Under the pieces are notes generated by a model. The model was not told where the DNA came from, did not search any database, and saw nothing but the letters and a program-made list of their open reading frames with translations. A stretch of DNA of 64,000 nucleotides from NCBI GenBank assembly GCA_945900775.1, contig CAMDJP010000004.1:25919-89918 (forward strand), given 5' to 3'. A program made the translations under genes and the position numbers. Shown here piece by piece: positions 20,278 through 39,266 of this stretch. Position 1 is the stretch's first letter. Every line of letters begins with the position of its first letter. This DNA comes from Akkermansia muciniphila. GTDB lineage: Bacteria; Verrucomicrobiota; Verrucomicrobiia; Limisphaerales; SIAT01.

Positions 20278-21593
<1,316 letters not shown>

Positions 21594-21613
21594 GGGAGGA
21601 CGAGGGCTTGGGT

Positions 21614-22552
21614 TTAGAAGTAGCCGGCTTTCTTGCGGTCTTCCATCGCGGCTTCGCTGGCCTTGTCGTCGGCGCGGGTGCCGCGCTCGGTGATGCGGGC
21701 GGCGGCGACTTCGCGGATGATGTCGTCCACGGTGCTGGCCGGGCTGTCAATCATGCCAGTGCTGATCATGTCGGCGATGGTGCGGACGCGGCAGACCATC
21801 GTCTTGAGCGGCTCTTTCGCGGTCGGACGTGCGCCGGCGTAAACATCGGGCTGACCGTTCGTCGCGTGCGGCGGCGGCACGGGCAGCCACTGGCCGCCGC
21901 GCCGGAAGCACTCGCGGGTGTGGCTGAAGTAGATGGTCGGCACCTCGAGCTTCTCGCGCTGGATGTATTCCCACACGTCCATCTCGGTCCAGTTGGAGAG
22001 CGGGAAGACGCGCATGTTTTCGCCCGGGTTCACGCGGGCGTTGTAGAGGTTCCAGATTTCGGGACGCTGATTTTTGGGATCCCACTGGCCGAACGCATCG
22101 CGGAAACTGAAGAAGCGTTCCTTGGCGCGGGCTTTCTCTTCGTCGCGTCGCGCGCCGCCGATGCAGCAGTCGAAACGGAACTCTTCAATCGCACCGAGCA
22201 GCACGGGAATCTGAAGCTGGTTGCGGCTGACTTGGCCGGGCGTGGGCGTAGCGAGGCCTTTGGCGAAGGCGTCGTCCACGGTGCGGACGATGAGCTTGGC
22301 GCCGAGTTCTTTCGCGCGGCGGTCGCGGAAATCAATCAGCTCGGGGAATTCGTGACCGGTCTCGACATTAAGAAAGGGCATCGGAATCTCGGAGGGACGA
22401 AAGGCTTTTTCAGCGAGGCGCAGGATGCAGATGGAATCTTTGCCGCCGGAGAAAAGAATCGCCGGGCGCTCGAAACTTGCCGCCACTTCACGCAGCACGT
22501 GAATGGCCTCCGTTTCGAGATACTGAAGATGGTCGAGATGGTATGAGCTCAT
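21614..22552 (-). CDS. cysD: Sulfate adenylyltransferase subunit 2
   Basis: PP-loop ILFSGGKDS; N-terminus MSSYHLDHLQYLETEAIHVLREV. ATG at 22550-22552 overlaps the cysH stop (ATGA). Confidence 0.92.
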   Translation of the reverse strand: MSSYHLDHLQYLETEAIHVLREVAASFERPAILFSGGKDSICILRLAEKAFRPSEIPMPFLNVETGHEFPELIDFRDRRAKELGAKLIVRTVDDAFAKGLATPTPGQVSRNQLQIPVLLGAIEEFRFDCCIGGARRDEEKARAKERFFSFRDAFGQWDPKNQRPEIWNLYNARVNPGENMRVFPLSNWTEMDVWEYIQREKLEVPTIYFSHTRECFRRGGQWLPVPPPHATNGQPDVYAGARPTAKEPLKTMVCRVRTIADMISTGMIDSPASTVDDIIREVAAARITERGTRADDKASEAAMEDRKKAGYF

Positions 22553-23214
22553 TTGTCGGCCATCGCCTTTCCGCCCCAACTGGCGTGGAGGCCGCACTCA
22601 CGTTTTTCATCCGCCTTGGCGGGATCGAAGTAATCCCACTCGTTGGGAAGGTTGTGTCGTTGCAGATACGATTCCATCTCGGCGTCGCTCCAATAAAACA
22701 CCGGGCTGACTTTGAGTGTGCCGAAATTGGGGTCGTGCGAAACGATGTCGAGGCCGGCGCGATTGGGGTTTTGGACTTTGCGTAGCGCGGTGAGCCAGAC
22801 AGCGGGCGCAAGTTCCTTCATGCCGCGCAGGAACGGCTCCAGTTTCATCGTGGTGCTGAAGGCTTTGATGCGCTCCTCGTTCTCCGGCGTCGGCTCGGGC
22901 ATACCGCCGTGAACGGCGTCGTAGTTCGCGGCGGTGAGGCGCGGCACGTAGGCTTTGATGTTCAGCTTGAGCAGCGCGCGCAGCGTTTCGGCATGCGCGT
23001 AAGTCGCGGGCCGATTGTAACCGTGATCCACCCACAGCACAGGAATGTCCGGCTGCACTTGCGTGGCGAGGTGGAGGATGACGGCTTCGTAAGGGCGATA
23101 GTTAGTCGAGACAATCGCGCGGCCGTTGGCTTGCGCGATGGCCCAACGAACGATTTCGAGCGGCGACTTATCGCGCAGGTCGACGTTGGCCTGGCCGATT
23201 TGTTCAGCGGTCAT
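22549..23214 (-). CDS. cysH: Phosphoadenosine phosphosulfate (PAPS)-type reductase, with no Fe-S cysteine cluster
   Basis: Alignable by eye to E. coli CysH (DIPVLWVDHGY, KLEPFLRGMKEL, C-terminal KRECGLH). ECGLH holds the only Cys in the protein. Confidence 0.9.
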   Translation of the reverse strand: MTAEQIGQANVDLRDKSPLEIVRWAIAQANGRAIVSTNYRPYEAVILHLATQVQPDIPVLWVDHGYNRPATYAHAETLRALLKLNIKAYVPRLTAANYDAVHGGMPEPTPENEERIKAFSTTMKLEPFLRGMKELAPAVWLTALRKVQNPNRAGLDIVSHDPNFGTLKVSPVFYWSDAEMESYLQRHNLPNEWDYFDPAKADEKRECGLHASWGGKAMADK

Positions 23215-23228
23215 GGCGATGAATGGAA

Positions 23229-24917
23229 TTAGTTCGCGGCGACCTGTTCGTTCCAGAGCGTGCGCGAGACCCAGTCACCGAAACGCTCGGAGCCGATGCG
23301 GTTCTTTGCGTATTGCTCGAGCAGCGGACGCAGCTCGGCGACGATATCCGGGTCCTTCACGTTATCTTTCCAGAGTCGGTTGAGGCGGGTGCAAGCTTCG
23401 TTGCCACCGAGGTAGACCTGATAGCGGCCGGGCGCTTTGCCGACGAAGCCGATTTCGGCCATGTACGGGCGGGCGCAGCCGTTCGGGCAGCCGGTCATGC
23501 GGATGATGATTTCGTTGTCCTTCAGGCCGAGTTCGCCGAGGACGTTCTCGAAGCGGCTGAGCAACTCGGGCAGGTAGCGTTCGCTCTCGGCGAGGCCGAG
23601 GCCGCAGGTCGGCATCGAGGGGCAGGCCATCGAGGCGCGTCGCAGGGCAGTGGTCTGGTTCTCGACCGGGATGCCGTGGTCGGCGAGCAACTGCGTGATG
23701 GACGACTGGTCGGCTGGCGTGATGTTGGCGAGGACGATGTTCTGCGATGGTGTGAGGCGGAACTCGGGTTTGAAGCGCTCGGCGATGAGCTTGAGTGCGC
23801 TCTTTAATTGGTAGCCGTCCTTGTCCTTGATGCGGCCGGTCTCGACGTATAGGCCGAGGAACTTTCGACCATCCGTGGCGGTGTCCCAGCCGAAGTGGTC
23901 GCCTTGGCGCTCGAACTTGAACGGCTTCGCGTCGGCGAGTTTGTAGCCGAGGCGGGTCTCGAGTTCCGACCGGAACCACAGGGCGCCCTTTTCCTCGAGT
24001 ACATATTTCAGGCGGGCGTGCTTTCGGTTGGTGCGGTCGCCGAAGTCGCGATGGATGGTGAGCACGCTCTTCGAGACATCGACGAGCTGCGCGGGCGTGA
24101 GGAAGCCAATGACGTCGGCGATGCGCGGGTAGGTCTCCTCGTTGCCGTGGCTGCGGCCGAGGCCACCGCCCACGGTGAGGTTGTAACCGGCGAGCTTGCC
24201 GCTCTCCTCGATGGCGATGTAGCCGAGGCAGTTCGTGAAGATGTCCACGTCGTTCACCGGCGTGGCAGCGAAGGCGGCCTTGAACTTGCGGGGCAGGTAG
24301 GTCTTGCCGTAGAGCGGGTCGACGAACTCCTTGTTCTCGGACGCGCTGAGGTCGAGCTGCACGCCTTCGACCCAGATAGAATGATAGGCCTTGGTGATGG
24401 GCATGAGTGCTTCGCTCACGCGCGTGGCATCGGCGAGCAGTTGCACGTCGAGGCCGTTGCGGGCGGGCGTTGGGGGCGACATCACATTGCGGTTTACGTC
24501 ACCGCAGGCGGCGATGGTGTCCATCATGGCCTCGTTGAGTTGTTTCATCAGCGGCCCAAGGCCGGCCTTCACCACGCCGTGGAACTGGAAGCTCTGGCGG
24601 GAGGTGATGCGCAGGGTCTGGTTGCCGAACTGCGTGGCGAGTTGGTCGTACACGAGGTACTGGCGGGCGTTGAGCACGCCGCCGGGGATGCGCCCGCGAA
24701 TCATCCAGATGAAGAGCTTGCCGGTCTTGCGTTTGTCCCGGTCGTCCTGCTGGTAGATGCCGTGGAACTTGAGGAACTGCTGGTCGTCCTCGGTGAAGCG
24801 GTCGACAGCCGGGTCGTTCAAGGTTCCGGCGATATTACCAGCCAAGGTGGGGATGGCGGTCTTGATCACCTCGTTGTGCGTCGGCTTCTTCTCGGATGCG
24901 GCGTTATTTTCAATCAT
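23229..24917 (-). CDS. Assimilatory sulfite reductase hemoprotein (siroheme/4Fe-4S; CysI/Sir family)
   Basis: 562 aa. Cys cluster motifs SMACPSMPTCGLGLAE and MTGCPNGCARPY. NirA/CysI-like repeats (FKFHGIYQQDDRD). Confidence 0.9.
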   Translation of the reverse strand: MIENNAASEKKPTHNEVIKTAIPTLAGNIAGTLNDPAVDRFTEDDQQFLKFHGIYQQDDRDKRKTGKLFIWMIRGRIPGGVLNARQYLVYDQLATQFGNQTLRITSRQSFQFHGVVKAGLGPLMKQLNEAMMDTIAACGDVNRNVMSPPTPARNGLDVQLLADATRVSEALMPITKAYHSIWVEGVQLDLSASENKEFVDPLYGKTYLPRKFKAAFAATPVNDVDIFTNCLGYIAIEESGKLAGYNLTVGGGLGRSHGNEETYPRIADVIGFLTPAQLVDVSKSVLTIHRDFGDRTNRKHARLKYVLEEKGALWFRSELETRLGYKLADAKPFKFERQGDHFGWDTATDGRKFLGLYVETGRIKDKDGYQLKSALKLIAERFKPEFRLTPSQNIVLANITPADQSSITQLLADHGIPVENQTTALRRASMACPSMPTCGLGLAESERYLPELLSRFENVLGELGLKDNEIIIRMTGCPNGCARPYMAEIGFVGKAPGRYQVYLGGNEACTRLNRLWKDNVKDPDIVAELRPLLEQYAKNRIGSERFGDWVSRTLWNEQVAAN

Positions 24918-25374: not shown

Positions 25375-28266
25375 ATGCATCGGTGCGTTGTCACCTCACT
25401 CGGTTATATCCTGCTCAGTGCCTTCGCACCAGGTGCGGCCCTCGCGGCCACGGCGCCATCGAGCACCGAGCTGGAGTTCTTCGAGAAAAAAATCCGTCCA
25501 CTACTCGCCGCGCAGTGCTTCGAGTGCCATAGCGAGAAGAAGGCCAAGGGCGGCCTCCGCCTCGATTCGCGCGACGGCTGGGCCAAGGGCGGCGAGAGCG
25601 GTCCGGCTATCCTCCTCGGCACTCCGGACAAGAGTCCGCTCCTCCGCGCCGTGCGTTATACCGATAAGGACCTTCAGATGCCGCCCAAGCGCAAGCTCAG
25701 CCCCGAGCAGCTTGCCGCCTTCGAACAATGGGTGAAGCTCGGTGCGCCAGATCCGCGCACGGCGACTGCCGCAATCGAGACCAAGAAAACCGGCATGACC
25801 ATCGAGGAAGGGCGGAAGTTCTGGTCATACCAGCCGCCCAAGGCTGTTGCTCTACCGACCGTGAATGACGCCGCGTGGCCGCGCACGGACATCGACCGAT
25901 TCATCCTCGCGCCAATTGAGGCGAAGAATCTCAAGCCTGCGCCGGACGCTGACCCCACCACGCTTGTCCGCCGTGTCTACTTCGACCTCACCGGTCTACC
26001 GCCGACACCGGAGCAGATCGATCAGTTCCTCAACGACAAGGCACCCGACGCTTACGTGCGTCTGGTGGATCGCCTGCTCGCCTCGCCGCATTTCGGCGAG
26101 CGCTGGGGACGGCACTGGCTCGACGTGGTGCGTTTCGCTGAGTCGATGACGCTGCGCGGGTTCGTCTTCAAGGAGGCGTGGCGCTATCGCGATTACGTCA
26201 TCGAATCCTTCAATGCCGATCGTCCGTTCGACCAATTCGTTCGTGAGCAGGTTGCCGGTGACCTCCAGCCGCACGGTTCCCTCGCTGAGCGTCGTCGCCA
26301 ACTGACCGCCACCGCGTTTCTCGCGCTCGCGAATTCCAATCTGGAGGAGCAGGACAAAAAGCAGCTCGAGATGGACGTGGTGGACGAGCAACTCGACGTC
26401 ATCAGCAAGGCGTTTCTTGGACAGACGGTCACCTGCGCCCGTTGCCACGACCACAAGTTCGACCCCATCCCCACGCGCGATTACTACGCTCTCGCCGGCA
26501 TCCTCAAGAACACGCACACCCTTGAGCATTCCAACGTCTCCAAGTGGATCGAACTTCCGCTGCCCGCTGAGCCGACCGAAGAGGCCGCGTACAAAAAACA
26601 CGATTCCGCTGTCGCTGCGTTGCAAGCAAAGATCAAGTCTGCGAAGGATGCCGCCAAGCCGGTAGCGAACGCTAGCGACAAGACGAAGCCGGTCTCTATC
26701 CGGCTCGCCGACTTACCCGGTGTCGTCGTGGATGATAGCAAGGCTGTGCGTGTCGGCGAGTGGACGCTCTCCAAGTACAGCGGCCGCTTCATCGGCGAAG
26801 GTTACTTGCACGACGCTGACGCTAGTAAAGGGAAGAAGACACTCACCTTCCAACCCGAGCTTCCGCACGCCGGCCTTTACGAGGTACGCCTCGGTTATAT
26901 CGCTGGTCGGAACCGCGCTACGAACGCGCCGGTCACCGTCTTCAGCGCCGATGGTGAGAAGACCTTTCACATCAATCAACAGGAACAGGCGGTGCTCGAT
27001 GGCCACTTCGTTTCGCTGGGCCAACACCGTTTCGAACAGAATGGTGCCGGCTTTGTCATCCTCAGCAACGAAGGCACCAAAGGGGTCGTCGTTGCCGACG
27101 CGGTGTTGTTCGTCCCTGTCGATGCGAACGCGCCGGGCAAGACCGTGGCCGTGACGTCTGCGACCTCCGACAACAAGAAGGATGCAAAGAAGGATGCGAA
27201 GAAAGAGGCCGTGCCCGACTCGATCAAGCAGATGGAGGCTGAACTGAAAAAGCTCACGGACTCCGGACCGAAGCGTCCGCTCTTCATGACCGTGCGTGAG
27301 GAGGCGACCTACGGCGATATTGCCGTGCACATCCGTGGCAGCGTCCACAACCTCGGTGAGAAGGTGCCGCGAGGCTTCCTACAAGTCGCTAGCCTGAGCA
27401 AACCTTCCACACCAATCGCCCAAGGACAGAGTGGTCGTCGTGAACTGGCCGAATGGCTCACCAGCACCGGGAACCCGCTTACCGCGCGCGTCATGGCTAA
27501 CCGCACGTGGCATTGGCTTTTCGGCGCTGGGATTGTTCGCACCACCGACAACTTCGGCACCACTGGTGAACTTCCGTCGCATTCCGAACTGCTCGATTAT
27601 CTCGCGCTGAAGTTCGCGCAGGGAAACTGGTCCGTGAAAAAAATCGTGCGCGAAATCGTGCTGAGCCGCACTTATCAACTTGCTAGCACCGCCACGCTGG
27701 AACAGGCGAAGGCCGATCCCGATAACCGCCTCTTCAGCCACGCCCAACGCCGCCGGCTTGATGCCGAGTGCATCCACGACGCGATGCTCTCTGCCGCCGG
27801 CACACTCGATCTGACTGTCGGTGGCGCCACAATCAAGTCCGGCACGACCGCCGACTACGCTTACAAGCATAGCGGCACCCGCCGCAGCGTCTACGCGCCC
27901 GTCCTGCGCAACTCGCTTCCGGAGATTTTCGAGATGTTCGATTTCGCCGACCCGAGCGTCGTCACCGGTCGCCGAAACACGAGCACTGTCGCGCCGCAGG
28001 CACTCTTTCTGATGAACCACCCCTTCGCCATCGAGCAGGGTCGCACGGCGGCGGGCCGGATTCTTAACGAGAAACTGCCGGATGACGCCGCGCGCGCGAC
28101 TCGCGCCTATCGTCTTATCCTAGGTCGCGTTCCGACCGAGGCTGAACGCCAAATCGCGCTTCGGCACATCGCCGCCGCCGGTCCGGAGGCTCCGCAGCAG
28201 CGCAAGGCGTGGGCTCAATTTTGTCAGGCCCTCTTCGCTGCCCCCGATTTCCGATACGTAAATTGA
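25375..28266 (+). CDS. Secreted PSCyt1 / DUF1549 / DUF1553 protein (Planctomycete cytochrome-c-domain family)
   Basis: 963 aa with a signal peptide. FFEKKIRPLLAAQCFECHS has CxxCH at 25516-25530; a second CxxCH sits in [11 protein letters not shown] (26434-26448). Also present: [30 protein letters not shown] and a C-terminal FRYVN. Confidence 0.9.
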   Translation: MHRCVVTSLGYILLSAFAPGAALAATAPSSTELEFFEKKIRPLLAAQCFECHSEKKAKGGLRLDSRDGWAKGGESGPAILLGTPDKSPLLRAVRYTDKDLQMPPKRKLSPEQLAAFEQWVKLGAPDPRTATAAIETKKTGMTIEEGRKFWSYQPPKAVALPTVNDAAWPRTDIDRFILAPIEAKNLKPAPDADPTTLVRRVYFDLTGLPPTPEQIDQFLNDKAPDAYVRLVDRLLASPHFGERWGRHWLDVVRFAESMTLRGFVFKEAWRYRDYVIESFNADRPFDQFVREQVAGDLQPHGSLAERRRQLTATAFLALANSNLEEQDKKQLEMDVVDEQLDVISKAFLGQTVTCARCHDHKFDPIPTRDYYALAGILKNTHTLEHSNVSKWIELPLPAEPTEEAAYKKHDSAVAALQAKIKSAKDAAKPVANASDKTKPVSIRLADLPGVVVDDSKAVRVGEWTLSKYSGRFIGEGYLHDADASKGKKTLTFQPELPHAGLYEVRLGYIAGRNRATNAPVTVFSADGEKTFHINQQEQAVLDGHFVSLGQHRFEQNGAGFVILSNEGTKGVVVADAVLFVPVDANAPGKTVAVTSATSDNKKDAKKDAKKEAVPDSIKQMEAELKKLTDSGPKRPLFMTVREEATYGDIAVHIRGSVHNLGEKVPRGFLQVASLSKPSTPIAQGQSGRRELAEWLTSTGNPLTARVMANRTWHWLFGAGIVRTTDNFGTTGELPSHSELLDYLALKFAQGNWSVKKIVREIVLSRTYQLASTATLEQAKADPDNRLFSHAQRRRLDAECIHDAMLSAAGTLDLTVGGATIKSGTTADYAYKHSGTRRSVYAPVLRNSLPEIFEMFDFADPSVVTGRRNTSTVAPQALFLMNHPFAIEQGRTAAGRILNEKLPDDAARATRAYRLILGRVPTEAERQIALRHIAAAGPEAPQQRKAWAQFCQALFAAPDFRYVN

Positions 28267-28380
28267 ATCCGCGCATTCGGTTTTGATAGGCCAACGGGTT
28301 CTCCCTGCAACGCAGAGGGGATGTGAGCAAGGCCTTCAGGCTACTGGGTTGGTTGCCGTCATCCGATCGAGCGCACGGGC

Positions 28381-28665
28381 TCACAGATCCCGGTTGCGCG
28401 TGTAGGAGTGGGTTGCGGTCACGCCGAGGAAGGCCCGCACGAAGTCCGCGTGACCGTCCGCAAAGGTGGCATTGGACTGGTTGTCGTTTACCCGCGTGTG
28501 CATGTAATACTCCGGCGGCGCATTGCTGTTGAGCGAACTCCAGAAGGGAAACCAGATTCCGTGGTCAACGTTCATCCCTTGGTTTCGCCAGCTTTTGGAG
28601 CGGCTGCTGTTCAGGTTGCAATCAATCAGAATAGCGGCTACCGTCGCGCGTCCAATATCCGGCAT
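28381..28665 (-). pseudogene. Possible remnant (C-terminal fragment) of a prepilin-type / H-X9-DG (DUF1559-like) pseudopilin gene
   Basis: 94-aa ORF ending ..HTRVNDNQSNATFADGHADFVRAFL. This resembles the conserved C-terminal H..N..FxDGHV motif of PVC pseudopilin-like proteins. There is no N-terminal methylation/TM domain, and an in-frame stop lies two codons upstream of the Met. Confidence 0.35.
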
Positions 28666-30097
28666 GAATCACCTTGAATCAGGTTTTGTTTCCCGCCGAC
28701 AAGCGCTGCAGTCGGCCGGGTGCGGTTTCGGTTCGCTCGCGCTGGCGGGACTGTTGGCTCAACGCGCTGACGCCGCAAATCCGCTCGCGCCCAAGGCGCC
28801 GCATTTGAAGCCGCGCGCCAAGCGGATTATCTTCCTCTTCATGCAGGGCGGTGTGAGTCACGTGGATTCGTACGACCACAAGCCGATCCTTTTGAAGCAG
28901 GACGGCAAGATGATGCCCTTCCACGATTCGAGGACAATCGCCAATTCGGGCAAGAAGGACGCCATCGAGCAGCGTGTGATGAAGCCGCTCTGGAAGTTCG
29001 CCCAGCACGGCAAGAGCGGCCGTTGGGCCAGTGATCTTTTCCCGGAGGTCAACAAGCACTTGGACGATCTTACGTTCATCCACTCGATGCACACCGAGGG
29101 CATCGCCCACGGTCCTGCAACGCTCTTCCTGCACTGCGGCTCGACCAACCTGATTAGGCCCTCGATTGGCTCGTGGGTCAGCTACGGCCTCGGCACGGAG
29201 AACGAGAATCTCCCGGCGTTCGTCTCCATCAGCCCTTCCAGCGGCAACGGCGGCGCGCGCAATTTTGGTAACGCCTTCCTGCCGCCAGTTTATCAAGGCA
29301 CGGGCATTGGCAAGGCCGGCGCTCCTGCGAGCGAGGCGGTCATCCGCAACCTCGCGCATCCGGAAATGAAGCTGGCTGAGCAGCGCAAGCAGTTTGATCT
29401 ATTCCAGTCCCTCAACGCTGAGCAACTCAAGCGCAGCCCCGGTGATACGGAGTTGGAGGCCGTCATCAATTCCTACGAGCTAGCGTGGCGAATGCAGAAT
29501 TACGCGCCCGACGCCTTTGATACCTCGAAGGAAACGCCCGAGACGCTCGCGCTCTACGGCATCGGCGAAAAGGCGACGGACAACTTCGGCCGCCAATGCC
29601 TCATGGCTCGGCGCCTCTGCGAATCCGGCGTACGCTTCATCCAGGTGACCTACGGCGACAACTCCGCCAACCCCGCGTGGGATCAGCATTCGAACCTCCC
29701 CAAGCACGGTGACCACGCGCGCGCCGTCGATAAGCCGATGGCTGGCCTGCTTGCCGACCTCGAGCAGCGCGGGTTGCTGAAAGATACGATTGTCTGGTGG
29801 TGCGGCGAGTTTGGTCGCACGCCTTACGCCGAGAAGAACGGTACCGGCCGTGATCACAACCCGAACGGCTTCACCACGTGGCTTGCGGGCGGCGGCCTGA
29901 AAAAGGGCTTCGCGCACGGCGCCACCGACGAGTTTGGCCACAAGGCGGTGCAGGACAAAGTGCACATGCACGACCTACACGCCACCCTGCTCCATATGCT
30001 TGGCCTCGACCACGAGCGACTCACTTACCGCTACGACGGGCGTGATTTCCGGCTCACCGATGTCCACGGTCACGTGGTGAAGGAGATTTTCGCCTAA
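28664..30097 (+). CDS. DUF1501 protein (sulfatase/alkaline-phosphatase-like fold, Tat-exported)
   Basis: ATG at 28664. Twin-arginine signal MNHLESGFVSRRQALQSAGCGFGSLALAGLLA. Also IIFLFMQGGVSHVDSYD, GRDHNPNGFTTWLAGGG and the C-terminus [15 protein letters not shown]. Confidence 0.9.
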   Translation: MNHLESGFVSRRQALQSAGCGFGSLALAGLLAQRADAANPLAPKAPHLKPRAKRIIFLFMQGGVSHVDSYDHKPILLKQDGKMMPFHDSRTIANSGKKDAIEQRVMKPLWKFAQHGKSGRWASDLFPEVNKHLDDLTFIHSMHTEGIAHGPATLFLHCGSTNLIRPSIGSWVSYGLGTENENLPAFVSISPSSGNGGARNFGNAFLPPVYQGTGIGKAGAPASEAVIRNLAHPEMKLAEQRKQFDLFQSLNAEQLKRSPGDTELEAVINSYELAWRMQNYAPDAFDTSKETPETLALYGIGEKATDNFGRQCLMARRLCESGVRFIQVTYGDNSANPAWDQHSNLPKHGDHARAVDKPMAGLLADLEQRGLLKDTIVWWCGEFGRTPYAEKNGTGRDHNPNGFTTWLAGGGLKKGFAHGATDEFGHKAVQDKVHMHDLHATLLHMLGLDHERLTYRYDGRDFRLTDVHGHVVKEIFA

Positions 30098-30140
30098 ACG
30101 GCCCGCAACACGGTGCGAGGCGTCGCGTGCGAAAACCATT

Positions 30141-31511
30141 TTGAATCCGCCTCAAAACAACCACGACCGGCGATCGAATCGGCGCGAGTTCCTGCGCGTG
30201 GGCGTGCTGGGCGCGGCTGGTTTGTCTCTACCTCAGTTGTTGGCGGCACGACAGACGGGTGCCGGCGTCGAGGCGAAGGCCGATTCCTGCCTAATCATCT
30301 TCCTCAATGGCGGCCCCAGCCATCTCGACATGTGGGACATGAAGCCCGAGGCGCCGTCGGAAATCCGCGGCGAGTTCCGGCCGATCGACACCACGCTACC
30401 CGGCGTGCAGCTTTGCGAACACCTGCCGCGGCTCGCGCGCCAGCTGCACCATTGCACGCTGATCCGCTCGATGAACCACAGCGTGAACAATTCCCACGCC
30501 GCCGCTGTGTACGCCGCGCTCACGGGGCACGATCGCGGTGAGCAGGGCGGCGGCGCCAAGCCCGGGGACCATCCGAACATGGGCTCGGTGCTCGCCCGGT
30601 TGCGTCCGGTCGCTGCGACCTCGCTGCCCTACGTGGCGCTGCCGTACAAGACGCAGGAAGGCGCTGGCGGCCCATTGCAGCCCGGCTTCATCGCTGGTTT
30701 CATCGGCGCGCACCACGATCCATTCTGGGTTTTGGAAGATCCGAGCCGTCCTGATTTCCGCGTGCAGAATCTCACGCCGCCGGAGGGCATGAACAACATC
30801 CGCCTCGCAGGCCGCGATGAACTGTTGCGTTCGTTCGATCAGACTTTTTTGCAGAAGCAGCCGACTAGTCGCTCGCCCTATGAATCACTCGGTGAATTCC
30901 AACGTCGCGCGTTCGATTTGCTCACGGCCGACACCACGCGCCGAGCGTTTGAGTTGGAGCGCGAGACGGTGGCGATGCGTGAATCGTACGGACGCAACAT
31001 CTACGGGCAGAGCGTGCTGCTCGCGCGGAGGCTCATCGAGGCCGGCACGCGCGTGGTGACGATGAGTTGGGCGCCGGACGCGAACGCCACATGGGACACG
31101 CACGGCGGCAATTTCCAGAAGCTGAAGACGACGTTGCTTCCGCAGTTCGATGCCGCCTGTTCGAGCCTGCTGGAAGATTTGCGCCAGCGAGGTCTTCTGA
31201 AACGGACGCTTGTCGCGGTGATTGGTGATTTCGGCCGCACGCCGCGCATCAACAACAATGCCGGGCGCGACCACTGGAACGCCTGCTACAGCGTCATGCT
31301 CGCCGGCGGTGGGATCAAGGCTGGGTTCGTCCACGGCGCCAGCGACCGCACCGGTTCGCTGCCGGCCGATCGACCCACCACGCCGGGCGACGTCATCGCC
31401 ACCATCTATCATCTGCTCGGCGTCAATCCGCGCACGGAACTGAACGATAACCTCAGCCGTCCGCACATGCTCGTGCCGCACGGCCAGGTGTTGCAAGAGA
31501 TAATGGGCTGA
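30141..31511 (+). CDS. DUF1501 protein (second subtype, Tat-exported)
   Basis: TTG start. Tat motif SNRREFLRVGVLGAAG. Also LIIFLNGGPSHLDMWDMKPEAP and GRDHWNACYSVMLAGGG. Confidence 0.9.
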   Translation: MNPPQNNHDRRSNRREFLRVGVLGAAGLSLPQLLAARQTGAGVEAKADSCLIIFLNGGPSHLDMWDMKPEAPSEIRGEFRPIDTTLPGVQLCEHLPRLARQLHHCTLIRSMNHSVNNSHAAAVYAALTGHDRGEQGGGAKPGDHPNMGSVLARLRPVAATSLPYVALPYKTQEGAGGPLQPGFIAGFIGAHHDPFWVLEDPSRPDFRVQNLTPPEGMNNIRLAGRDELLRSFDQTFLQKQPTSRSPYESLGEFQRRAFDLLTADTTRRAFELERETVAMRESYGRNIYGQSVLLARRLIEAGTRVVTMSWAPDANATWDTHGGNFQKLKTTLLPQFDAACSSLLEDLRQRGLLKRTLVAVIGDFGRTPRINNNAGRDHWNACYSVMLAGGGIKAGFVHGASDRTGSLPADRPTTPGDVIATIYHLLGVNPRTELNDNLSRPHMLVPHGQVLQEIMG

Positions 31512-31528
31512 CGTTATTTTTCTAGCCG

Positions 31529-32461
31529 ATGAAAATATTTTCGCCCCTCCTCGCGCTTTGTTTTGCGGCGCGTCTCTTCGCCGCCGATTCGTTTGACCAA
31601 TCCGGCGTGGCGCTGGAGGTGGATTCAACTGACGCGAAGCTTGCCAAGATTGTCCTACTCGCCGGTACGCCGAGCAGCAAGTCGGGCGCGCACGAGTACT
31701 TCGCCGGCTGCGCGCTGCTGCTGCAGTGGCTCAAGGAGCAGCCGGGCGTCTGGCCGGTGATGGCGCGCGAGTGGCCCAAGAACGAGAAGATTCTCGAAGG
31801 GGCGAAGGCGATCGTCTATTTCGGCGACGGCGGCGGCAAGCAGCCGTTCGTGAACCCGGAACGTTGGGCGAAGCTTACCAAGATGATCGACGGCGGCGCT
31901 GGCTTCGTGCTGCTGCATCAGGCGGTGGATTTCCCCAAAGGCCCCGATGCGGAGAAGGTGATGGACTGGGTCGGCGGCGTATTCCACGGCGACATCGGCT
32001 GCCGCGGTCATTGGGACATGGATCTCAAGCCGACAGGCGAACATCCCGTGGTGCGAGGCGTGAAGCCCTTCGCTGCGCCGGGCGACGGTTGGCTTTACAA
32101 CCTGCACTTCGGCTCCGCGACCAAGCCGCTCCTCGTTGGTCAAGTGCCCGAGAAGTCGCGCAGTTCGGTGGACGCGAAGAAGCACGCCGGACGCGATGAG
32201 GTGATTGCGTGGGCCAGCGAGCGCCCTTCGGGTGGGCGCGGCTTTGGCTTCACGGGTGCGGATTTGCACAAGAGTTGGGGCTACCAGAGCCAGCGCAAAC
32301 TGGTCGTCAACGCAATCCTCTGGACCGCGAAGCTGGACGTGCCCGAAGGCGGCGCGAAGACGACTTTCATCGAGGCCGATCTCTCCAAGAACCTCGATAA
32401 GAAGACTGCCCCACCGGCCAAAGCGACCCCCAAAACCGCGCCCAAGCCGTCGGTGAAATAA
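31529..32461 (+). CDS. Secreted ThuA-like (class I glutamine-amidotransferase-like fold) protein
   Basis: Signal peptide MKIFSPLLALCFAARLFAAD. Also IVLLAG..HEY..LL, GGAGFVLLHQAV and KLVVNAILWTA, consistent with the ThuA domain. Confidence 0.7.
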   Translation: MKIFSPLLALCFAARLFAADSFDQSGVALEVDSTDAKLAKIVLLAGTPSSKSGAHEYFAGCALLLQWLKEQPGVWPVMAREWPKNEKILEGAKAIVYFGDGGGKQPFVNPERWAKLTKMIDGGAGFVLLHQAVDFPKGPDAEKVMDWVGGVFHGDIGCRGHWDMDLKPTGEHPVVRGVKPFAAPGDGWLYNLHFGSATKPLLVGQVPEKSRSSVDAKKHAGRDEVIAWASERPSGGRGFGFTGADLHKSWGYQSQRKLVVNAILWTAKLDVPEGGAKTTFIEADLSKNLDKKTAPPAKATPKTAPKPSVK

Positions 32462-32478
32462 GCTCACACCAACAAGGT

Positions 32479-32540
32479 TGAGGCCTGTTCGAATCGACCC
32501 CAACCAAGAGGACTCGATACCGTTTCGGCCTCATTTCTCT
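32479..32540 (+). terminator. Hairpin followed by a T-rich tract, downstream of the ThuA-like gene
   Basis: TGAGGCC (32479-32485) pairs with GGCCTCA (32527-32533). There is an inner ATCGA/TCGAT pairing, and TTTCTCT follows. The long interrupted stem makes this weak. Confidence 0.25.
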
Positions 32541-33022
32541 CGATGTTTCGCTCTTAAAAACAGTCTATCGTGCCCGTAGAACGACCTGTTTTTAGTGTCC
32601 GAAGAGATTTTGTTGGCCTGTCTCTTGAGGGTGCCGCCCCATTTTCGGAGGGCCGAATTGCACGCAGCCGCCTCACCCGAACGAGGAGAGTATCAGCAGG
32701 CATCGGTCTATCTCATTCTACTTCTTGTTCACCCTGCAAAAGCCGGGATAAATCCGAAAAAGGACTATTCAGGAGGTCTCATTTTTGATACAAAATCTCG
32801 CTGTACTGGCTGCTTGTTGCACCAGTCGCGTCAGGTTGGTATCAGAAAAACTGCTGAGGCCACCTTACGCAGGAAAACGCAACATAACCTCGCATAAAAA
32901 AGCGCTACGTAGCTCCCATCATCGCCCTCCTCTGTGTCAGCGCACTATTCGTCGTCCGCTGGGTCGGTGATACTGCCACTAGCACGCCCAAGTCCCTGCG
33001 AGTCCTCACGGCGGCAGAGCAG

Positions 33023-35233
33023 GTGCGTGCATTGCGTGCGAAGGCCAAAGGGGGCAACAGCAAGCTCCTCGCGGTCCAAGCGCTTGCACAAGCGACGCCT
33101 GCCGCCAAGGGGGTGTCCATCTACGGGACGCGCTGGGGCCGTGAAGAGAAACAAGAGTTGAAGGCGTTCTCGGGGTGGGCTGGGCAGTTCTCCTCAGCCA
33201 CACCGGCGGAGAAGGGACAGTTGATTAAAGCAGGTGTTGAGCTCGCCAAAGAACGCCGGCTCGTGATGGCCGACTTGATTGAGTTCGATCCGGCGGCTGC
33301 GGTGGCGGCGGCGATTCCACAGGAAGTCCGCGCGGAACTACCTGAGGAAGTTCTCGCACACACGGAACGCCGCATCTCCGGCGTGGGAAATCTGGATGTG
33401 TACGGCATCACTCCAGCGCGGGGTGCCAAGCAATCGGTGCCGCTGATCGAGCGCACAGCCCGCTTGGGCGGCCGCGCGTATCAAGCCAATACGTACGGTG
33501 TTCTCGCGAGCTTTGGTACCGTGAAGGATCTCTACATGCACGGTGTGGCTGTGGATGGCCGGATTGCGTTGGCCGATGCGCCCGTGCGTACTTTGGAAGC
33601 GGGGGAGAAGGTGGCTGCAGGCGCAGCAATCATCGCGTCTCATCCCGTCCAACTCGACCCAGCTCTCGCGCAAAGTGCAGGAGCACCGCGCTTGGCGGAA
33701 GGTGCCGGTGGATATCACTGCCTCTGTTGCAGCACGGAGGCCAAGGCGAATTATGATGGTTCACGCTGGGCCGCTCTGGGCGAGGGAGGAACCGTCGCTG
33801 CTGCCATTGGACGCGCCTATAAAAATACCGGCAGCAAATCGGTGCTGGTCATACCCGTGCAGTTCCCCGACCAGGCCGGTTCGCCGTGGTCCAGTGATGG
33901 AGTTCGGGACACTAGGATTAGCCAAATCCAATCCTACTTCAGCACCGCCTCATACGCGGCCTTTAATCTCAACAATGCCACGGTCATTTCCCTACAGACA
34001 CTGCCCTCAAATCGTTCCACCTACCGAACTGGTGCTGGAGAACATAACTCGACCCTTCTCACAACGTTGGCCACAGATGCGAGCACTCTAGCCACGGCCG
34101 CCGGTTACGATCCCGACGACTACGATTTCGTGAGCTTCGTCATCAACCACAACCTTTGGAGTGGCGTCGCTGGCCTGGCATACTTAGGTGATAAGCACAG
34201 CTTCATCGACGGTGATGGGGCGGAGACGTCAGCGGTTTACATCCATGAGTTGGGCCATAATCTGGGCCTCTATCACGCCGGCTCATGGGACTCAACTAGC
34301 AATGTGCCCGACAGTTCCAGTGGCACAACCAGCGAATATGGAAATAGGTTCGATGCGATGGGAGATACTTACACCTATTCCTACGACCAACTGCATTTCA
34401 ATGCGAGTTTCAAGAACGCCTTGGATTGGTTGCCCGATAGCTACGTCACCACGGTCACCACGGATGTGACAATGAACCTGTATGCCATGGACCGGACGCA
34501 AGTGAGCGGGCGGGCCTACGCCGTCAAAATCCCCGCGGGTATAACCTTGGACGGCATCAGCAATCTGGATTATTGGGTCGAATTCCGCAGCCGCTACACG
34601 GGTGTCGACACCATCCAAAACGGCGTGCTCATTTACACCGCCAACACCGCTCATGATAACGGCGCCTCGAAGCTGCTGGATATGGCCCCCGCCACCTCCA
34701 CCTTTCTCGACGCTGGGTTGCCGATAGGCAGTTCCTTTCCCACGGCCGATGGCCTATGGCGAATCACGGTCAATTCCCAGGCCGGCTCCGGGAATGACAG
34801 CCTCATCAATGTGACCATTTCGGATGCTCGTCCACCTGTCATCACCACCCAACCTGCGAGTGTCACCGCGAGTTATGGAAGTGCTGTCTCCTTCTCCGTG
34901 GTGGCCACTGGATCTAGTCTAACATATCAATGGTCCAAAGATAACGCCACGTTGACCGGAAAAACAGACGCTACTTTGTCCATTCCCGATTTTCAGTCGG
35001 CCAACCTTGGATCGTACACCGTTACTATCACCGGCGCGCACGGCACCGCTATCAGCAGCGCGGCGACATTGACGGTTTCGGAGAGTGGCGGCGGTGGCGG
35101 TGGCGGCGGCGGGTGCGGTTACACCACGCCGCCCGAGCAGATTATCCTGATTGGCTGGGCCGTGTTGTTGCTCTGCCGCCTTCTGCAAGGCGCATCCGCT
35201 GGCGCGTTCAAGCCGCGCGAAGAAGCGGTGTAA
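33023..35233 (+). CDS. Metzincin zinc metalloprotease with a C-terminal Ig-like domain, poly-Gly linker and hydrophobic C-terminal anchor
   Basis: HELGHNLGLYH (HExxHxxGxxH) at 34244-34276. Ig-like segment PPVITTQPASVTASYGSAVSFSVVATGSSLTYQW..GSYTVTITG. Poly-Gly run at 35087-35113, then TPPEQIILIGWAVLLLCRLL. The true start is probably upstream (see finding at 32888-33022). Confidence 0.8.
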   Translation: MRALRAKAKGGNSKLLAVQALAQATPAAKGVSIYGTRWGREEKQELKAFSGWAGQFSSATPAEKGQLIKAGVELAKERRLVMADLIEFDPAAAVAAAIPQEVRAELPEEVLAHTERRISGVGNLDVYGITPARGAKQSVPLIERTARLGGRAYQANTYGVLASFGTVKDLYMHGVAVDGRIALADAPVRTLEAGEKVAAGAAIIASHPVQLDPALAQSAGAPRLAEGAGGYHCLCCSTEAKANYDGSRWAALGEGGTVAAAIGRAYKNTGSKSVLVIPVQFPDQAGSPWSSDGVRDTRISQIQSYFSTASYAAFNLNNATVISLQTLPSNRSTYRTGAGEHNSTLLTTLATDASTLATAAGYDPDDYDFVSFVINHNLWSGVAGLAYLGDKHSFIDGDGAETSAVYIHELGHNLGLYHAGSWDSTSNVPDSSSGTTSEYGNRFDAMGDTYTYSYDQLHFNASFKNALDWLPDSYVTTVTTDVTMNLYAMDRTQVSGRAYAVKIPAGITLDGISNLDYWVEFRSRYTGVDTIQNGVLIYTANTAHDNGASKLLDMAPATSTFLDAGLPIGSSFPTADGLWRITVNSQAGSGNDSLINVTISDARPPVITTQPASVTASYGSAVSFSVVATGSSLTYQWSKDNATLTGKTDATLSIPDFQSANLGSYTVTITGAHGTAISSAATLTVSESGGGGGGGGGCGYTTPPEQIILIGWAVLLLCRLLQGASAGAFKPREEAV

Positions 35234-35349
35234 GCAGGCTTGTGGCGCACCTTCACCCTCTACGCCTCTGATTTCTTAAGCTCTCAATAAGGCCAAACGC
35301 AGGAAGCAGGTCGTTGGCTCAGAACGAATAGTTGCCGGCTTCCGTCGTC

Positions 35350-37848
35350 ATGATTTATGATCGGACGAACACAGGATTCATGGGCCGCTTTCTTATCAAC
35401 GGACTGATGTTTTTTTTGGCCGCTGTCCCGCTTCATGCGGCGGACACGGCGGGTGTGGAGTTTTTCGAGAAACGGATCCGACCCATCCTCGTCGAGCGTT
35501 GCTACGAGTGCCATAGTGCGCAGGCGAACAAGGTCAAGGGCGGTCTGCGTCTCGATACGCGCGAGGCGCTGCTCAAGGGAGGCGATACCGGTCCAGCGCT
35601 TGTCCCCGGCGATCCGGATAAGTCGCCTCTTATCAAGGCGGTGCGTTACAAGAATCAGGATTTGCAGATGCCCCCGAAAAGCCCGCTCACGCCCGGGCAG
35701 GTCCGAGACCTCGAGCAATGGGTGAAGATGGGCGCGCCCGATCCTCGGGCTGTGGCTGCGGTTTCGCCTTCGGGCAGGCGTGAGATTAACATCGAGGAGG
35801 GTCGCAAGTTCTGGGCGTTCCAGCCGCTGGCCAATCCGGTGGTCGCCAAAATCCAATCTGGTCGGAACGCGATTGACGCTTTCATTTTGGCCAAACTGGC
35901 AGAGAAGGGGCTTCGGCCTGCACCACCAGCGGATAAGCGTGCGTTGTTGCGCCGTGCGACGTTCGACCTCATCGGCCTGCCGCCAACGCCAGCGGAGATG
36001 CAGGCCTTCCTCGCGGACCAATCTCCGGACGCCTTCGCAAGGGTGGTCGAACGGCTTCTCGCCTCGCCGCAGTACGGCGAGCGTTGGGGGCGGCATTGGC
36101 TCGACGTGGCGCGTTACGCGGATTCAAACGGGCTCGATGAGAACGTGGCCTTCGGCAACGCGTGGCGTTACCGAGACTATGTGGTGAACGCCTTCAACCA
36201 CGACAAGCCGTACGACCAGTTCCTCGTCGAGCAGATTGCCGGCGACCTGTTACCGACAGCCGAGAACGTCGCGGTAAAGCATGAGCGGTTGACCGCGCTC
36301 GGATTCCTTTCCCTCGGCCCCAAGCTCCTCGCCGAACCGGACAAGGTGAAGTTGGAGATGGACCTGATTGACGAGCAGATCGACACGCTTGGTCGCGCGG
36401 TAATGGGTATGACGCTCGGTTGCGCGCGTTGTCACGACCACAAGTTCGACCCCGTTGCCACCGAGGATTACTACTCGCTCGCCGCCATCTTCAAGAGCAC
36501 ACGCACGATGGATGACCTCAAGACCATTGCCAAGTGGCACGAGCCACTGATGGCCTTGCCAGAGGATTTCAAGGCGAATGCGGACCATGAGAAGCGCGTC
36601 GCTGCGCAGAAAGAAACGATTACCAAGTTCATTGCCGAGGCGAACCGTGCACTGCTCATCGCCCTCAAAACCTCCACGCTGCCGCCGAAGCCCGAGTCGC
36701 GCTATCCCACAAACACGACGGCCGAGTTGGAGAAGTTTCGCAGCGAACTCGCGCGATTGCAGAAGGAGGCGCCCGAGTTGCCGAGCACGATGGGGGTGAC
36801 CGAGGCGACGAATGTGGTGAGGGCATTTCCCGTCCACATCCGAGGCAGCCATCTCACGCTGGGCAAGGCTGTGTCGCGCGGCGTGCCGCCGGTGATGACG
36901 ATTTCCGCCCAGCCGAAGTTTGCGGAGCAGCAGAGCGGCCGACTCGAACTCGCTCGCTGGCTCGCCAGCGCGGAGCATCCGCTCACCGCGCGTGTGATGG
37001 TAAACCGCATCTGGCGCTGGCATTTTGGCCGCGGCTTAGTCGCGAGTACCGACAACTTCGGCGCGCTCGGCGAACGACCGTCGCACCCGGAACTGCTCGA
37101 CTGGCTCGCTCGCCAGTTCATCGCTTCGGGTTGGAGCGTGAAGGCGTTGCACCGGCTCATCATGTCCAGCGCGACCTACCAGATGGCCTCGGAAGCGGCG
37201 GACGCAAGCCCCTTGGTACTTTTTGGAAAAGATAGAGAGCGCGCTGCGTCGCGAAGCTCCGTTTCGACAGGGGAAGATTCGGAGAACCGATTTTATGCAC
37301 GCTTTCATCAACGCCGACTCGAAGCGGAAGAGATCCGCGATGCGTTGCTGTCCGTCGCCGGCACGCTCGATCTTACGATGGGCGGCAAGACCCTTCCGCT
37401 GAAGAACCGCGAGTTCGTCTTCGACCACACCTCGAAGGACGCCACCACCTACGCCAGTCTGCGCCGAGCGATTTATCTGCCGGTCATCCGCAACCATCTC
37501 TACGACCTCTTCGAGCAGTTCGATTATCCTGATCCAGCCGTGCCCAGCGGTAGCCGCAACACTACCACGGTGGCACCGCAGGCGCTGCTGATGATGAACA
37601 GCGAACTCGTTCGCGAGGCCGCCGAGAAGTTTGCCGCGCATCTGCTCGCACAAACCAAATTGTCCGATGCGAAGCGCGTGGAGCTAGCCTACGTGAAGGC
37701 TTATGGACGCCCACCAACTGTGCGTGAGCTTGATCGAGCGCAGCGGTTCTTGGGCCAGAATACGGATAAAAACGGTGGCGCAACAGGGGCGTGGGAGATG
37801 TTCTGCCAAGCACTGCTGGCAGCGAACGAATTCATCCACCTGAACTGA
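35350..37848 (+). CDS. Secreted PSCyt1 / DUF1549 / DUF1553 protein (second copy)
   Basis: [19 protein letters not shown] has CxxCH at 35500-35514; [11 protein letters not shown] is at 36421-36435. Also [17 protein letters not shown] and [12 protein letters not shown]. Alternative start at ATG 35380 ([20 protein letters not shown] signal peptide). Confidence 0.9.
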
Positions 37849-37850
37849 AC

Positions 37851-39266
37851 GTGAACCTGGCATCTTTTCAATATCTCTCCCGACGCGACGCGCTACAGCG
37901 TGCAGCCGGCGGTTTCGGCTGGCTGGCGGCCTCCGCGTTGCTGGCTGACGAAACGCGTGCCGCGGCCAATCCACTTGCGCCAAAGAAACCGCATTTTCCC
38001 GCGCGGGCCAAACGCGTCATCTTTCTCTTCATGAAGGGCGGTCCGTCGCACTTGGACACATTCGATCCCAAGCCGCTGCTCGATCGCGATGACGGCAAGC
38101 CGTTCCCCGCTGCGAAACCGCGCGTGCAGTTCGCGGCAACGGGCGAGTTGCTCAAGTCGCCGTGGAAATTTCAGAACCACGGCAAGAGCGGGCTTCCCGT
38201 GAGTGAGCTCTTCCCGAATGTCGCGCAGTGCGTGGATGACCTTTGCATCGTCCGCTCGTTGCACGGTACGAACGCGGCGCACGGCGGTGCGCTCCTCAAG
38301 CTCCACACCGGCAGCGACAACTTCGTCCGGCCGAGTATGGGCGCGTGGGTCAACTACGGTCTTGGTTCCGAGAACCAGAACCTTCCCGGTTTCATTACCA
38401 TCTGCCCCACACTCGCGCATGGCGGCGTGAACAACTGGGGCGCGGCTTTCCTACCCGCCGCGTATCAGGGCACGCCGCTCGGCAACGCCGCCATCCCGGT
38501 CACCGCGGCCACCGTGCGGCACATCAAGAACACGCGCCTCACGCCGACGCAGCAGCGCGCACAGCTCGATCTGCTCGCGCAAATGAACCGCGATCACCTC
38601 GCGAAGGCCGGCCCGAATCCGGCCCTCGAGGGCCGCTTGAATTCCTTCGAGCTCGCCTTCCGCATGCAGATCGCGATGCCCGAGGCGCAGGATTTGTCGA
38701 AGGAGACCGAGGCGACGAAAAAGCTCTACGGACTCGACGACAAGGTGACAGAGAACTTCGGCCGCCAATGTCTCATGGCTCGCCGTTTCGCCGAGCGCGG
38801 TGTCCGTTTCATCCAGGTCACACACAGCGACGGTGATGTGCAATGGGACCAGCACGGCAACCTCCGCAAAGGCCACACGAAGAACGCCGCCGAGGTCGAC
38901 AAACCCATCGCCGGACTCTTGAAGGACCTGAAGGCGCGCGGGCTGTTGAAGGACACGCTTGTTCTCTGGGGCGGGGAGTTTGGTCGAACCCCTGCGGCGC
39001 AGGGTGCCCGTGATGGTCGCGATCACAACCCCGAGGGCTTCACGATGTGGATGGCGGGAGGCGGTGTGAAACCGGGCATTGCTTATGGGGCGACCGATGA
39101 TTACGGATGGTTCGCCGCCGAAAACAAGGTGCACATCCACGACCTTCACGCCACGGTGCTGGCCCTGCTCGGGCTCGATCATGAGCGGCTCACCTACCGC
39201 TACGCCGGACGCGACTTCCGGCTCACGGATGTACACGGGCACGTGGTGAAAGAGATTTTCGCCTGA
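37851..39266 (+). CDS. DUF1501 protein (paired subtype, Tat-exported)
   Basis: GTG at 37851, 2 bp after the upstream stop. Tat motif [24 protein letters not shown]. Also [17 protein letters not shown] and [17 protein letters not shown]. The C-terminus [15 protein letters not shown] is identical to that of the 28664 copy. Confidence 0.9.

Follow-up and report, generated by a model that had tools for sequence, protein, structure and literature searches.

Two PSCyt-DUF1501 gene pairs in a verrucomicrobial contig are ordinary copies of an abundant, biochemically uncharacterised module

Two gene pairs on one strand

The window analysed here is a stretch of 64,000 nucleotides of contig CAMDJP010000004.1, and the region of interest within it, positions 25375-39266, has seven long open reading frames (ORFs), all on the plus strand. 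Four of them make up two modules. Each module has a gene for a giant secreted protein, hereafter the partner, with the domains PSCyt1, PSCyt2/DUF1549, and PSD1/DUF1553 in this order (Pfam E values 1e-18 to 1e-86), and 3' of it a gene for a DUF1501 protein with a twin-arginine motif. A preliminary description, made from the sequence alone, had named these domains, the twin-arginine DUF1501 gene after each giant and the domains of the three genes in between; the domain assignments were borne out by Pfam, far over the gathering scores, and the twin-arginine motifs were read in both modules. Both modules are ordinary copies of a known, very abundant, and unexplained module, and the window, which contributes one further case but evidence of no new type, makes the question of its function no more testable than do thousands of other loci.

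The module 1 partner (25375-28266) is 963 amino acids (aa) long, as had been described, and begins with a Sec-type signal peptide. Pfam places its PSCyt1 domain at 25516-25689, PSCyt2/DUF1549 at 25891-26517, and PSD1/DUF1553 at 27433-28167, with a Golvesin_C insert, which we read as CBM84-like, at 26725-27114. The DUF1501 gene of this module (28664-30097, in an ORF open from 28523; Pfam E 3.4e-143) codes for 477 aa, which is also the length given by an independent gene call, and it is separated from the partner gene by a spacer of 397 bp (28267-28663); these two genes are therefore not tightly coupled. The spacer contains a minus-strand ORF of 94 aa (28381-28665) with the tail ATFADGHADFV, ending in NATFADGHADFVRAF, which resembles the C-terminal H-X9-DG tail of DUF1559 pseudopilin-like proteins. 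The ORF may be what is left of a gene that split module 1; as a remnant of a DUF1559 gene in particular it was not retained, because it has no Pfam match and BLASTP against a DUF1559 protein gave E values of 0.18-0.9.

In module 2 the partner (35380-37848, in an ORF open from 35332) starts with ATG, carries a Sec-type signal peptide and the same three domains by Pfam, and has 822 aa; the earlier figure of about 830 aa therefore has to be corrected to the length counted from the ATG at 35380. It is 100% identical to P0121. The DUF1501 gene of module 2 (37851-39266, in an ORF open from 37791, assigned by Pfam) codes for 471 aa from a GTG start, and the gap of only 2 bp that had been reported for this module holds with this start, which is also the one used by independent gene calls. 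More generally, metagenome contigs in the ENA are identical to the region and their independent gene calls match most of the starts (477, 822, and 471 aa). The positions of the four CxxCH motifs in the two giants were likewise exact, namely, CFECH at 25516-25530 and CYECH at 35500-35514 in PSCyt1, and CARCH at 26434-26448 and at 36421-36435.

The twin-arginine motifs are SRRQALQ in the DUF1501 protein of module 1, SRRDALQ in that of module 2, and NRREFLR in a third DUF1501 protein encoded between the modules. The two paired DUF1501 proteins are 57% identical to each other. That they end identically is correct, since their last 19 residues are shared, but this is not a special feature of the two because the C-terminal 19 residues correspond to a conserved motif of the family, as the consensus of 49 sequences shows. 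Recent gene conversion as the source of the shared ends was ruled out: 7 of the 57 nucleotides differ, and none of these differences alters any of the 19 residues. Promoter and terminator scans of the region gave only background-level signals and did not delimit the operons.

Recurrence of the pair and its genomic setting

Genomes were scanned with the partner alignment, one genome per species, and the best 80 of at least 600 matches were analysed. DUF1501 neighbours were detected among six-frame ORFs with hidden Markov models built from our own alignments, and 75 of these 80 loci could be scored, that is, they had at least 1.2 kb of downstream sequence. The recurrent pairing that the preliminary description had stated was confirmed by this count: a DUF1501 gene lies directly downstream of the partner gene and on the same strand in 65 of the 75 loci, mostly at a distance of a few tens of bases or fewer, and directly upstream of it in two. 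The analysed loci belong to Planctomycetota, Verrucomicrobiota, Acidobacteriota, and Armatimonadota. Plasmids show the same gene order in the gammaproteobacterial genera Catenovulum and Saccharobesus, in Chondrinema and Haliscomenobacter of the Bacteroidota, and in Singulisphaera. No recurrent third gene was seen in about 70 loci, upstream and downstream; the nearest neighbours span 90-104 Pfam families, none of which occurs in more than five loci, and the commonest is Sulfatase (5 of 69 downstream and 2 of 73 upstream ORFs).

The two genes have also diverged together. Pairwise distances between partners and between their DUF1501 proteins are correlated with r = 0.695, the maximum in 500 permutations being 0.186 (59 complete pairs), and in 33 of the 59 pairs the nearest relative of both genes is from the same locus. 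Therefore, the two genes have evidently been copied and passed on together. The partner family is very large: clustered at 50% identity it has 69,253 clusters at E ≤ 1e-3, 37,722 at 1e-10, and 13,230 at 1e-30. Among the carriers of the pair are four lake metagenome bins (L024, L025, L041, and L063) whose records are titled 'Akkermansia muciniphila' or 'Candidatus Kuenenia stuttgartiensis'. According to the literature DUF1501 is absent from both of these species (PMC4960237; PMC3542564), and the titles of the four records are probably wrong. In a Vibrio maritimus plasmid (L088, 1-5423) the gene of a very large LamG-like protein (29736-36719 of the record) precedes that of a short, 398-aa DUF1501 protein, and by this case DUF1501 may have further types of partner.

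The module was not an undescribed periplasmic system, as had been supposed, because its two-gene architecture, the cytochrome motifs included, had appeared in print in 2012 (PMC3542564) and was taken up again in 2017 (PMC5615132). Kamneva et al. (2012; PMC3542564) described a twin-arginine DUF1501 gene beside a gene for a PSCyt1/PSCyt2/PSD1 protein, sometimes with Laminin_G_3 or F5_F8_type_C in the partner. They stated that the function was unclear, proposed electron transfer to sugars or proteins, and, from a correlation with compartmentalised species, proposed a tie to the internal membranes of bacteria of the Planctomycetes-Verrucomicrobia-Chlamydiae (PVC) group (PMC3542564). He et al. (2017; PMC5615132) classed the architectures found in freshwater Verrucomicrobia, described PSCyt2 genes as adjoining a conserved unknown gene family, listed carbohydrate-binding inserts, and gave an inverse correlation with the density of glycoside hydrolase genes and an enrichment in oxic water layers. 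Both modules of the window, with the same three-domain partner, the downstream twin-arginine DUF1501 gene and, in module 1, an insert, are plain members of the module described in these two papers. Module 1 differs in its unusually long 397-bp spacer and in the type of its insert, which is Golvesin_C and apparently CBM84-like and not Laminin_G_3, F5_F8_type_C, or one of the others reported. What does stand is that the pair is biochemically uncharacterised, as no published biochemical function was found in open-access papers and preprints.

The seven genes had been called an island, and this description had to be dropped: the G+C content does not deviate, housekeeping genes stand on both sides, and in relatives just the pairs stay together. 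The G+C content of the region is 0.58-0.63, the same as in the rest of the window, and downstream of the region lie ruvC, ruvA, a lytic transglycosylase gene, and priA. On the upstream side, on the minus strand (20274-24917), are genes of assimilatory sulfate reduction, namely, those for an EF-Tu-type GTPase (CysN-like), a 3'-phosphoadenosine 5'-phosphosulfate (PAPS) reductase, and a sulfite/nitrite reductase, and no functional link between these genes and the pair was found. In composition, in the flanking genes, and in conservation as a block we found no sign of a genomic island, no tRNA or repeat scan having been made. The best matches to proteins of the window are in named Verrucomicrobiota of the Limisphaerales/Pedosphaera group, and cultured relatives of the genus Roseimicrobium have DUF1501 orthologues that are 78% identical. 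Orthologues of module 2 (about 70% identity) stand in a different neighbourhood, directly after genes for an extracytoplasmic function (ECF) sigma factor and a FecR/Laminin_G_3 anti-sigma factor. In two such loci (L091, 7805-9990; L092, 7810-10001) sigma factor, anti-sigma factor, and module 2 orthologue are on the same strand with gaps of 0-10 bp, which looks like a four-gene operon in these relatives; the window has neither the sigma nor the anti-sigma gene. The conserved units are thus the two-gene pairs only and not the seven genes.

The three genes between the modules code, as had been noted and as Pfam confirmed, for a DUF1501 protein of a second subtype, a ThuA-like protein, and a metzincin-type protein with an Ig domain. 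The second-subtype DUF1501 protein (30141-31511, 456 aa, TTG start) shares 28% identity with the paired copies. The public gene call for it, of 437 aa, starts 19 codons late and cuts off the twin-arginine motif, and the TTG at 30141 is the more likely start because the shorter call would drop a motif kept in 71 of 72 members of the family. Orthologues of this protein are unusually well conserved, with 65-72% identity across Verrucomicrobiota and Planctomycetota, and at three distant loci (L094, L095, and L096) they have neither a PSCyt nor a ThuA neighbour; since ThuA adjacency is absent there, the second-subtype DUF1501 gene and the ThuA-like gene were rejected as a conserved pair. An AhpC/Redoxin gene lies within two genes of the stand-alone DUF1501 gene in two of these three loci. 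The ThuA-like protein (31529-32461, 310 aa, Pfam ThuA E 3.6e-10) has a Sec signal peptide, so that it fits the earlier picture of extra exported proteins, but the 736-aa metzincin-type ORF (33023-35233), read from its first possible start, has no evident N-terminal signal peptide. The latter, which has an HExxH motif, weak Pfam matches to Reprolysin_3 and Peptidase_M11, and also Ig_3 and I-set matches, is outside the conserved module. It is preceded by 561 bp without a long ORF, and its tail has a run of nine glycines followed by the hydrophobic stretch CGYTTPPEQIILIGWAVLLLCRLL, which, judged by eye, resembles a sorting signal of the PEP-CTERM type.

A second cluster of exported proteins, with no PSCyt partner present, lies on the minus strand at 55575-62882. 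It includes a fourth and divergent DUF1501 gene (60252-61763), whose product is 27-32% identical to the other three, flanked by genes for a 3-keto-disaccharide-hydrolase-domain protein (61794-62882) and a PQQ_2 beta-propeller (58851-60182), and next comes a gene (55575-58820) whose 1081-aa product bears an HZS_alpha (hydrazine synthase alpha middle) domain.

Features of the two proteins

The partner is marked by the strict conservation of its CxxCH motifs. There are exactly two in each partner and both are present in all 59 full-length homologues, in which C35, C38, H39, C342, C345, H346, and H348 are invariant. About 52 residues past the CxxCH of PSCyt1, M91-P92-P93 is kept in 58-59 of the 59, and the methionine of this Met-Pro-Pro may well serve as the distal ligand of a class-I cytochrome c. 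Thus PSCyt1, which scores over its cut-off, has the features of a class-I cytochrome, a CxxCH and a downstream Met, and most partners also have weak matches to Cytochrom_C and Cytochrome_CBB3 that are below the cut-off. In DUF1549 the second motif belongs to an invariant block, C-x-R-C-H-D-H-K-[FY]-D-P. A 10-residue stretch is invariant as well, and so are NRxW and several Arg and Asp in DUF1553. The N-termini of the partners have no RR and are Sec-type signals. In two partners, that of Saccharobesus and P0239, PSCyt1 is missing; CARCH is kept in both and a separate cytochrome c gene lies within about 3 kb. Near the Saccharobesus partner (L006, 13474-15490) are genes for two small proteins with a C-terminal CxxCH and for a cytochrome b, and next to P0239 is a gene for a PSCyt1-WD40 protein (L097, 10986-12431). 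This pattern of fusion or separation, seen in two cases, suggests that the heme domain contributes to how the system works.

Between the second CxxCH motif and the beginning of DUF1553 the partners have 150 to 426 residues, and the module 1 partner, with 343, is near the top of the range because of the Golvesin_C insert. This insert matches residues 907-1039 of a Paenibacillus xanthan lyase (6f2p) with an E value of 5e-18, which is the sole PDB sequence match of the partner. The xanthan-binding modules of P. nanensis enzymes are family CBM84 of the carbohydrate-binding modules (CBMs) (PMC11002231), and by our own reading the C-terminal module of 6f2p is a CBM84 and the insert would hence be CBM84-like. 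Laminin_G_3 occupies the same slot in the Catenovulum and Chondrinema partners and stands at the C-terminus instead in two other loci. Among the best 150 representatives of the family many have 900-1250 aa and match in two stretches, with the break near query residue 400-425, as would be expected at a hot spot of domain insertion. The model of the module 2 partner is mostly or entirely alpha-helical and of low confidence (mean predicted local distance difference test score, pLDDT, 64), and a fold search with this weak model against the PDB returned nothing better than E 0.24.

The DUF1501 protein could be modelled better. From the alignment of 49 sequences a model with a predicted TM-score (pTM) of 0.79 and a mean pLDDT of 72 was obtained, and the sulfatase/phosphatase-like fold that had been given for this family was recovered by Foldseek, which gave a probability of 1.0 to S1 sulfatases and LtaS. 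Many S1 sulfatases were matched with E 4e-6, at TM-scores of 0.33-0.40 and identities of 9-14%. At the level of sequence the kinship is faint: of the 49 members, 35 match Phosphodiest and 24 match Sulfatase in Pfam, below the gathering cut-offs (16.5 bits against 23 and 11 bits against 25, respectively), and a single-sequence search against PDB chains gave no match, whereas a profile search of PDB sequences gave sub-threshold matches to sulfatases and LtaS. According to this model DUF1501 is a distant member of the alkaline-phosphatase fold superfamily.

DUF1501 shares with S1 sulfatases, such as human arylsulfatase A and the carrageenan and chondroitin sulfatases, not only the alpha/beta fold but also the block VDxxhGxLhxxLxxxGLhxxThVhh.G before the metal-ligand motif. 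In the profile alignment the sulfatase block VDxxVGxLxxxLxxxGLxxNTIVIFxGDHG pairs with a segment of DUF1501 in which the metal-ligand motif GDHG is replaced by G-[ED]-F-G-R; therefore, Glu/Asp-Phe stands at the site of the sulfatase Asp-His/Asn ligands. Residue conservation was scored in 72 diverse DUF1501 proteins, including all four copies of the window. The Phe of this motif (F377 in the numbering of the module 2 protein) is invariant in all 72, as are G63, H144, W332, D333, H335, R379, and H392; position 376 is always E or D, position 69 always D or E, and S66 (66/72), K74 (71/72), and R390 (70/72) are nearly invariant. The formylglycine motif of sulfatases, C/S-x-P-x-R, is found in just four of the 72 proteins and at no fixed position, which makes a formylglycine active site of the kind that had been considered unlikely. 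In the model H144 starts the helix that follows the strand 131-138. In this superfamily the start of that helix is where sulfatases have the formylglycine and NPP and LtaS the Thr nucleophile, and the secondary structure of the model would put H144 at this nucleophile position. The three invariant His, the several carboxylates, and the near-invariant Ser would fit a one- or two-metal site, and judged by these residues DUF1501 is in all likelihood a functional metal enzyme, though not a sulfatase of the S1 type. A twin-arginine motif is present in 71-72 of the 72 proteins.

Proposed function of the pair

The reading that we prefer, and to which we give an about even chance of being right, is that each pair is a self-contained periplasmic two-subunit metalloenzyme that acts on glycans and has a heme link. 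DUF1501 would be the catalytic, metal-dependent subunit on the alkaline-phosphatase/sulfatase fold. It would be exported in the folded state by twin-arginine translocation (Tat), and such export suggests that the metal or cofactor is loaded in the cytoplasm. The partner would be exported unfolded through Sec, letting heme c attach in the periplasm, where the two would form a complex. Its PSCyt1 would be an N-terminal class-I cytochrome c domain, as the CxxCH and the Met-Pro-Pro indicate, the CxxCH site of DUF1549 would be a second heme or metal site, and the variable slot between DUF1549 and DUF1553 would take carbohydrate-binding modules and set the choice of substrate. The substrates would be glycans or glycan-derived oligomers that have reached the periplasm, and the heme or hemes would pass electrons to or from the metal centre of DUF1501 or hold it in its active redox state. 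The division of labour and the export routes would have a parallel in periplasmic dehydrogenases such as SorAB sulfite dehydrogenase, whose catalytic subunit is exported by Tat and whose cytochrome c subunit is exported by Sec. The pair has no sequence or fold kinship with SorAB-type dehydrogenases, however; the fold of DUF1501 is of the hydrolase type, with no recognised redox cofactor site.

A heme-c subunit working with a Tat-exported hydrolase-like protein is also what the preliminary description had suggested. Its domains, signals, and fold hold, and as a functional guess it is reasonable and matches guesses published earlier, but the part of it that concerned sulfate esters has lost support. 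The glycan substrate fared similarly. It is plausible from the inserts and from the genes that accompany the pair on plasmids of Alteromonadaceae and Bacteroidota, which code for GH43, GH115, GH98, and GH88 enzymes, pectate lyase, TonB, and SusC/D, but a specificity for sulfated glycans is not supported, given the missing formylglycine motif, the change of GDHG to G[ED]FG, and the mere 7 Sulfatase genes among the 142 nearest neighbours. For module 1 the insert suggests an acidic, xanthan-like polysaccharide as the first substrate to guess.

Several observations weigh against this two-subunit enzyme. The assignment to the Tat route is by motif alone, and the Pfam model TAT_signal matches just one of the 49 DUF1501 proteins. 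Eight of the 75 partner genes have no adjoining DUF1501 gene (an alternative partner at these eight loci was rejected, their downstream genes being mutually unrelated), and the stand-alone DUF1501 subtype evidently works without a PSCyt neighbour at its three distant loci. Plain co-inheritance of adjacent genes would also yield the co-divergence of the two. The glycan context is anecdotal outside the plasmid examples, the neighbours in the 80 loci being heterogeneous. The model of the partner is worst around CARCH (pLDDT about 30), a site that may or may not bind heme. Finally, we know of no member of the alkaline-phosphatase superfamily that needs an electron-transfer partner.

In the strongest of the alternatives, DUF1501 is a non-redox phosphoesterase, sulfoesterase, or other esterase or transferase, the partner binds and presents the polymer or serves as an anchor, and the hemes are structural or vestigial. 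All structural neighbours of DUF1501 are hydrolases or transferases, the sub-threshold Phosphodiest matches in 35 of 49 members point the same way, and the invariant three His and several Asp/Glu with one Ser resemble the two-metal sites of alkaline phosphatase and NPP; a variable slot for CBMs also fits a targeting role. Moreover, DUF1501 pairs with a partner of another kind. Gonçalves et al. (2016; PMC5122149) described an operon of Proteobacteria that joins DUF1800 to a DUF1501 with a Tat signal, in which, as here, the twin-arginine DUF1501 gene comes right after the gene for a larger partner, with a gap in Rhizobium lusitanum that is also 2 bp, but the DUF1800 partner has, in the one copy read (L090), no CxxCH. 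Homology between DUF1549/DUF1553 and DUF1800 was considered and rejected: none of 47 partners has a DUF1800 match at E values up to 5, and hhalign gave 0.5%, in a weak comparison with a single Rhizobium DUF1800 sequence. What makes a simple hydrolase with a targeting subunit rather unlikely in our judgement is that the invariance of the CxxCH pair and of Met-Pro-Pro in the 59 homologues is unexpected for a vestige and that a cytochrome c is encoded separately close to each of the two partners without an N-terminal heme domain. The enrichment of these genes in genomes from oxic layers, given by He et al. (PMC5615132), is a further point against it.

If, on the other hand, the hemes do carry electrons, the pair could be a periplasmic dehydrogenase or oxidase, in which a redox metal centre in DUF1501 oxidises a sugar-derived substrate and the electrons go through the heme or hemes of the partner to the respiratory chain. 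The layout of a Tat protein with a cytochrome c, parallel to SorAB, favours this, and in Saccharobesus the cluster continues, by the annotation of the record, with cytochrome c and cytochrome b genes that could be a link to the membrane. The anticorrelation with glycoside hydrolase genes and the enrichment in oxic layers (PMC5615132) would agree with it, and the window also has ThuA-like, 3-keto-disaccharide-hydrolase-domain, and PQQ propeller proteins, which are kinds tied to oxidative sugar pathways. We nevertheless consider this explanation unlikely because redox catalysis on this fold is without precedent and no cofactor-binding motif was identified in DUF1501, while Saccharobesus is a single example and the ThuA adjacency is not conserved. 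We would give the same low probability to the boldest form of the two-subunit enzyme that we prefer, in which DUF1501 would be the first enzyme with the sulfatase/alkaline-phosphatase fold to be redox-coupled, its His-rich metal centre, with a dedicated heme partner supplying or withdrawing electrons, cleaving or modifying glycans by oxidation and not by hydrolysis.

A tie of the pair to the internal membranes of PVC bacteria is weakened because the pair also occurs in Acidobacteriota, Armatimonadota, Bacteroidota, and Gammaproteobacteria, which lie outside the PVC phyla and are not known for such membranes. Together with such a tie, for which the correlation with compartmentalised species speaks (PMC3542564), a sensing module that reports a periplasmic ligand to the ECF sigma and anti-sigma factors can be set aside as very improbable: the module 2 orthologues do stand directly after these genes and an ECF link of a Rhodopirellula PSD1/PSCyt2 protein has been mentioned (PMC2754498), but across 73 loci neither sigma nor anti-sigma genes recur next to the pair, their position fits a regulation of the pair by them, and invariant catalytic-looking residues and tens of paralogues per genome fit enzymes better.

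What is new here for this module is the count of adjacency, the co-divergence of the two genes, the invariance of the CxxCH motifs, the residue set of DUF1501, and the apparently CBM84-like insert at a variable site. Experiments gain from these a list of residues for mutagenesis, the expectation that formylglycine chemistry is unlikely, and a defined slot for binding modules that would set specificity. One Rhodopirellula genome is reported to have 41 copies of each of two partner domains (PMC2754498), and the size of the partner family together with such copy numbers therefore places the pair among the largest protein systems of environmental bacteria without a known reaction. If the boldest, oxidative form of the proposal is true, the tens of thousands of pairs would be a large unrecognised class of carbohydrate-active enzymes that works beside glycoside hydrolases in Planctomycetota, Verrucomicrobiota, and Acidobacteriota. 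Solving the reaction of the pair would alter how the carbon turnover by these phyla is read from their genomes.

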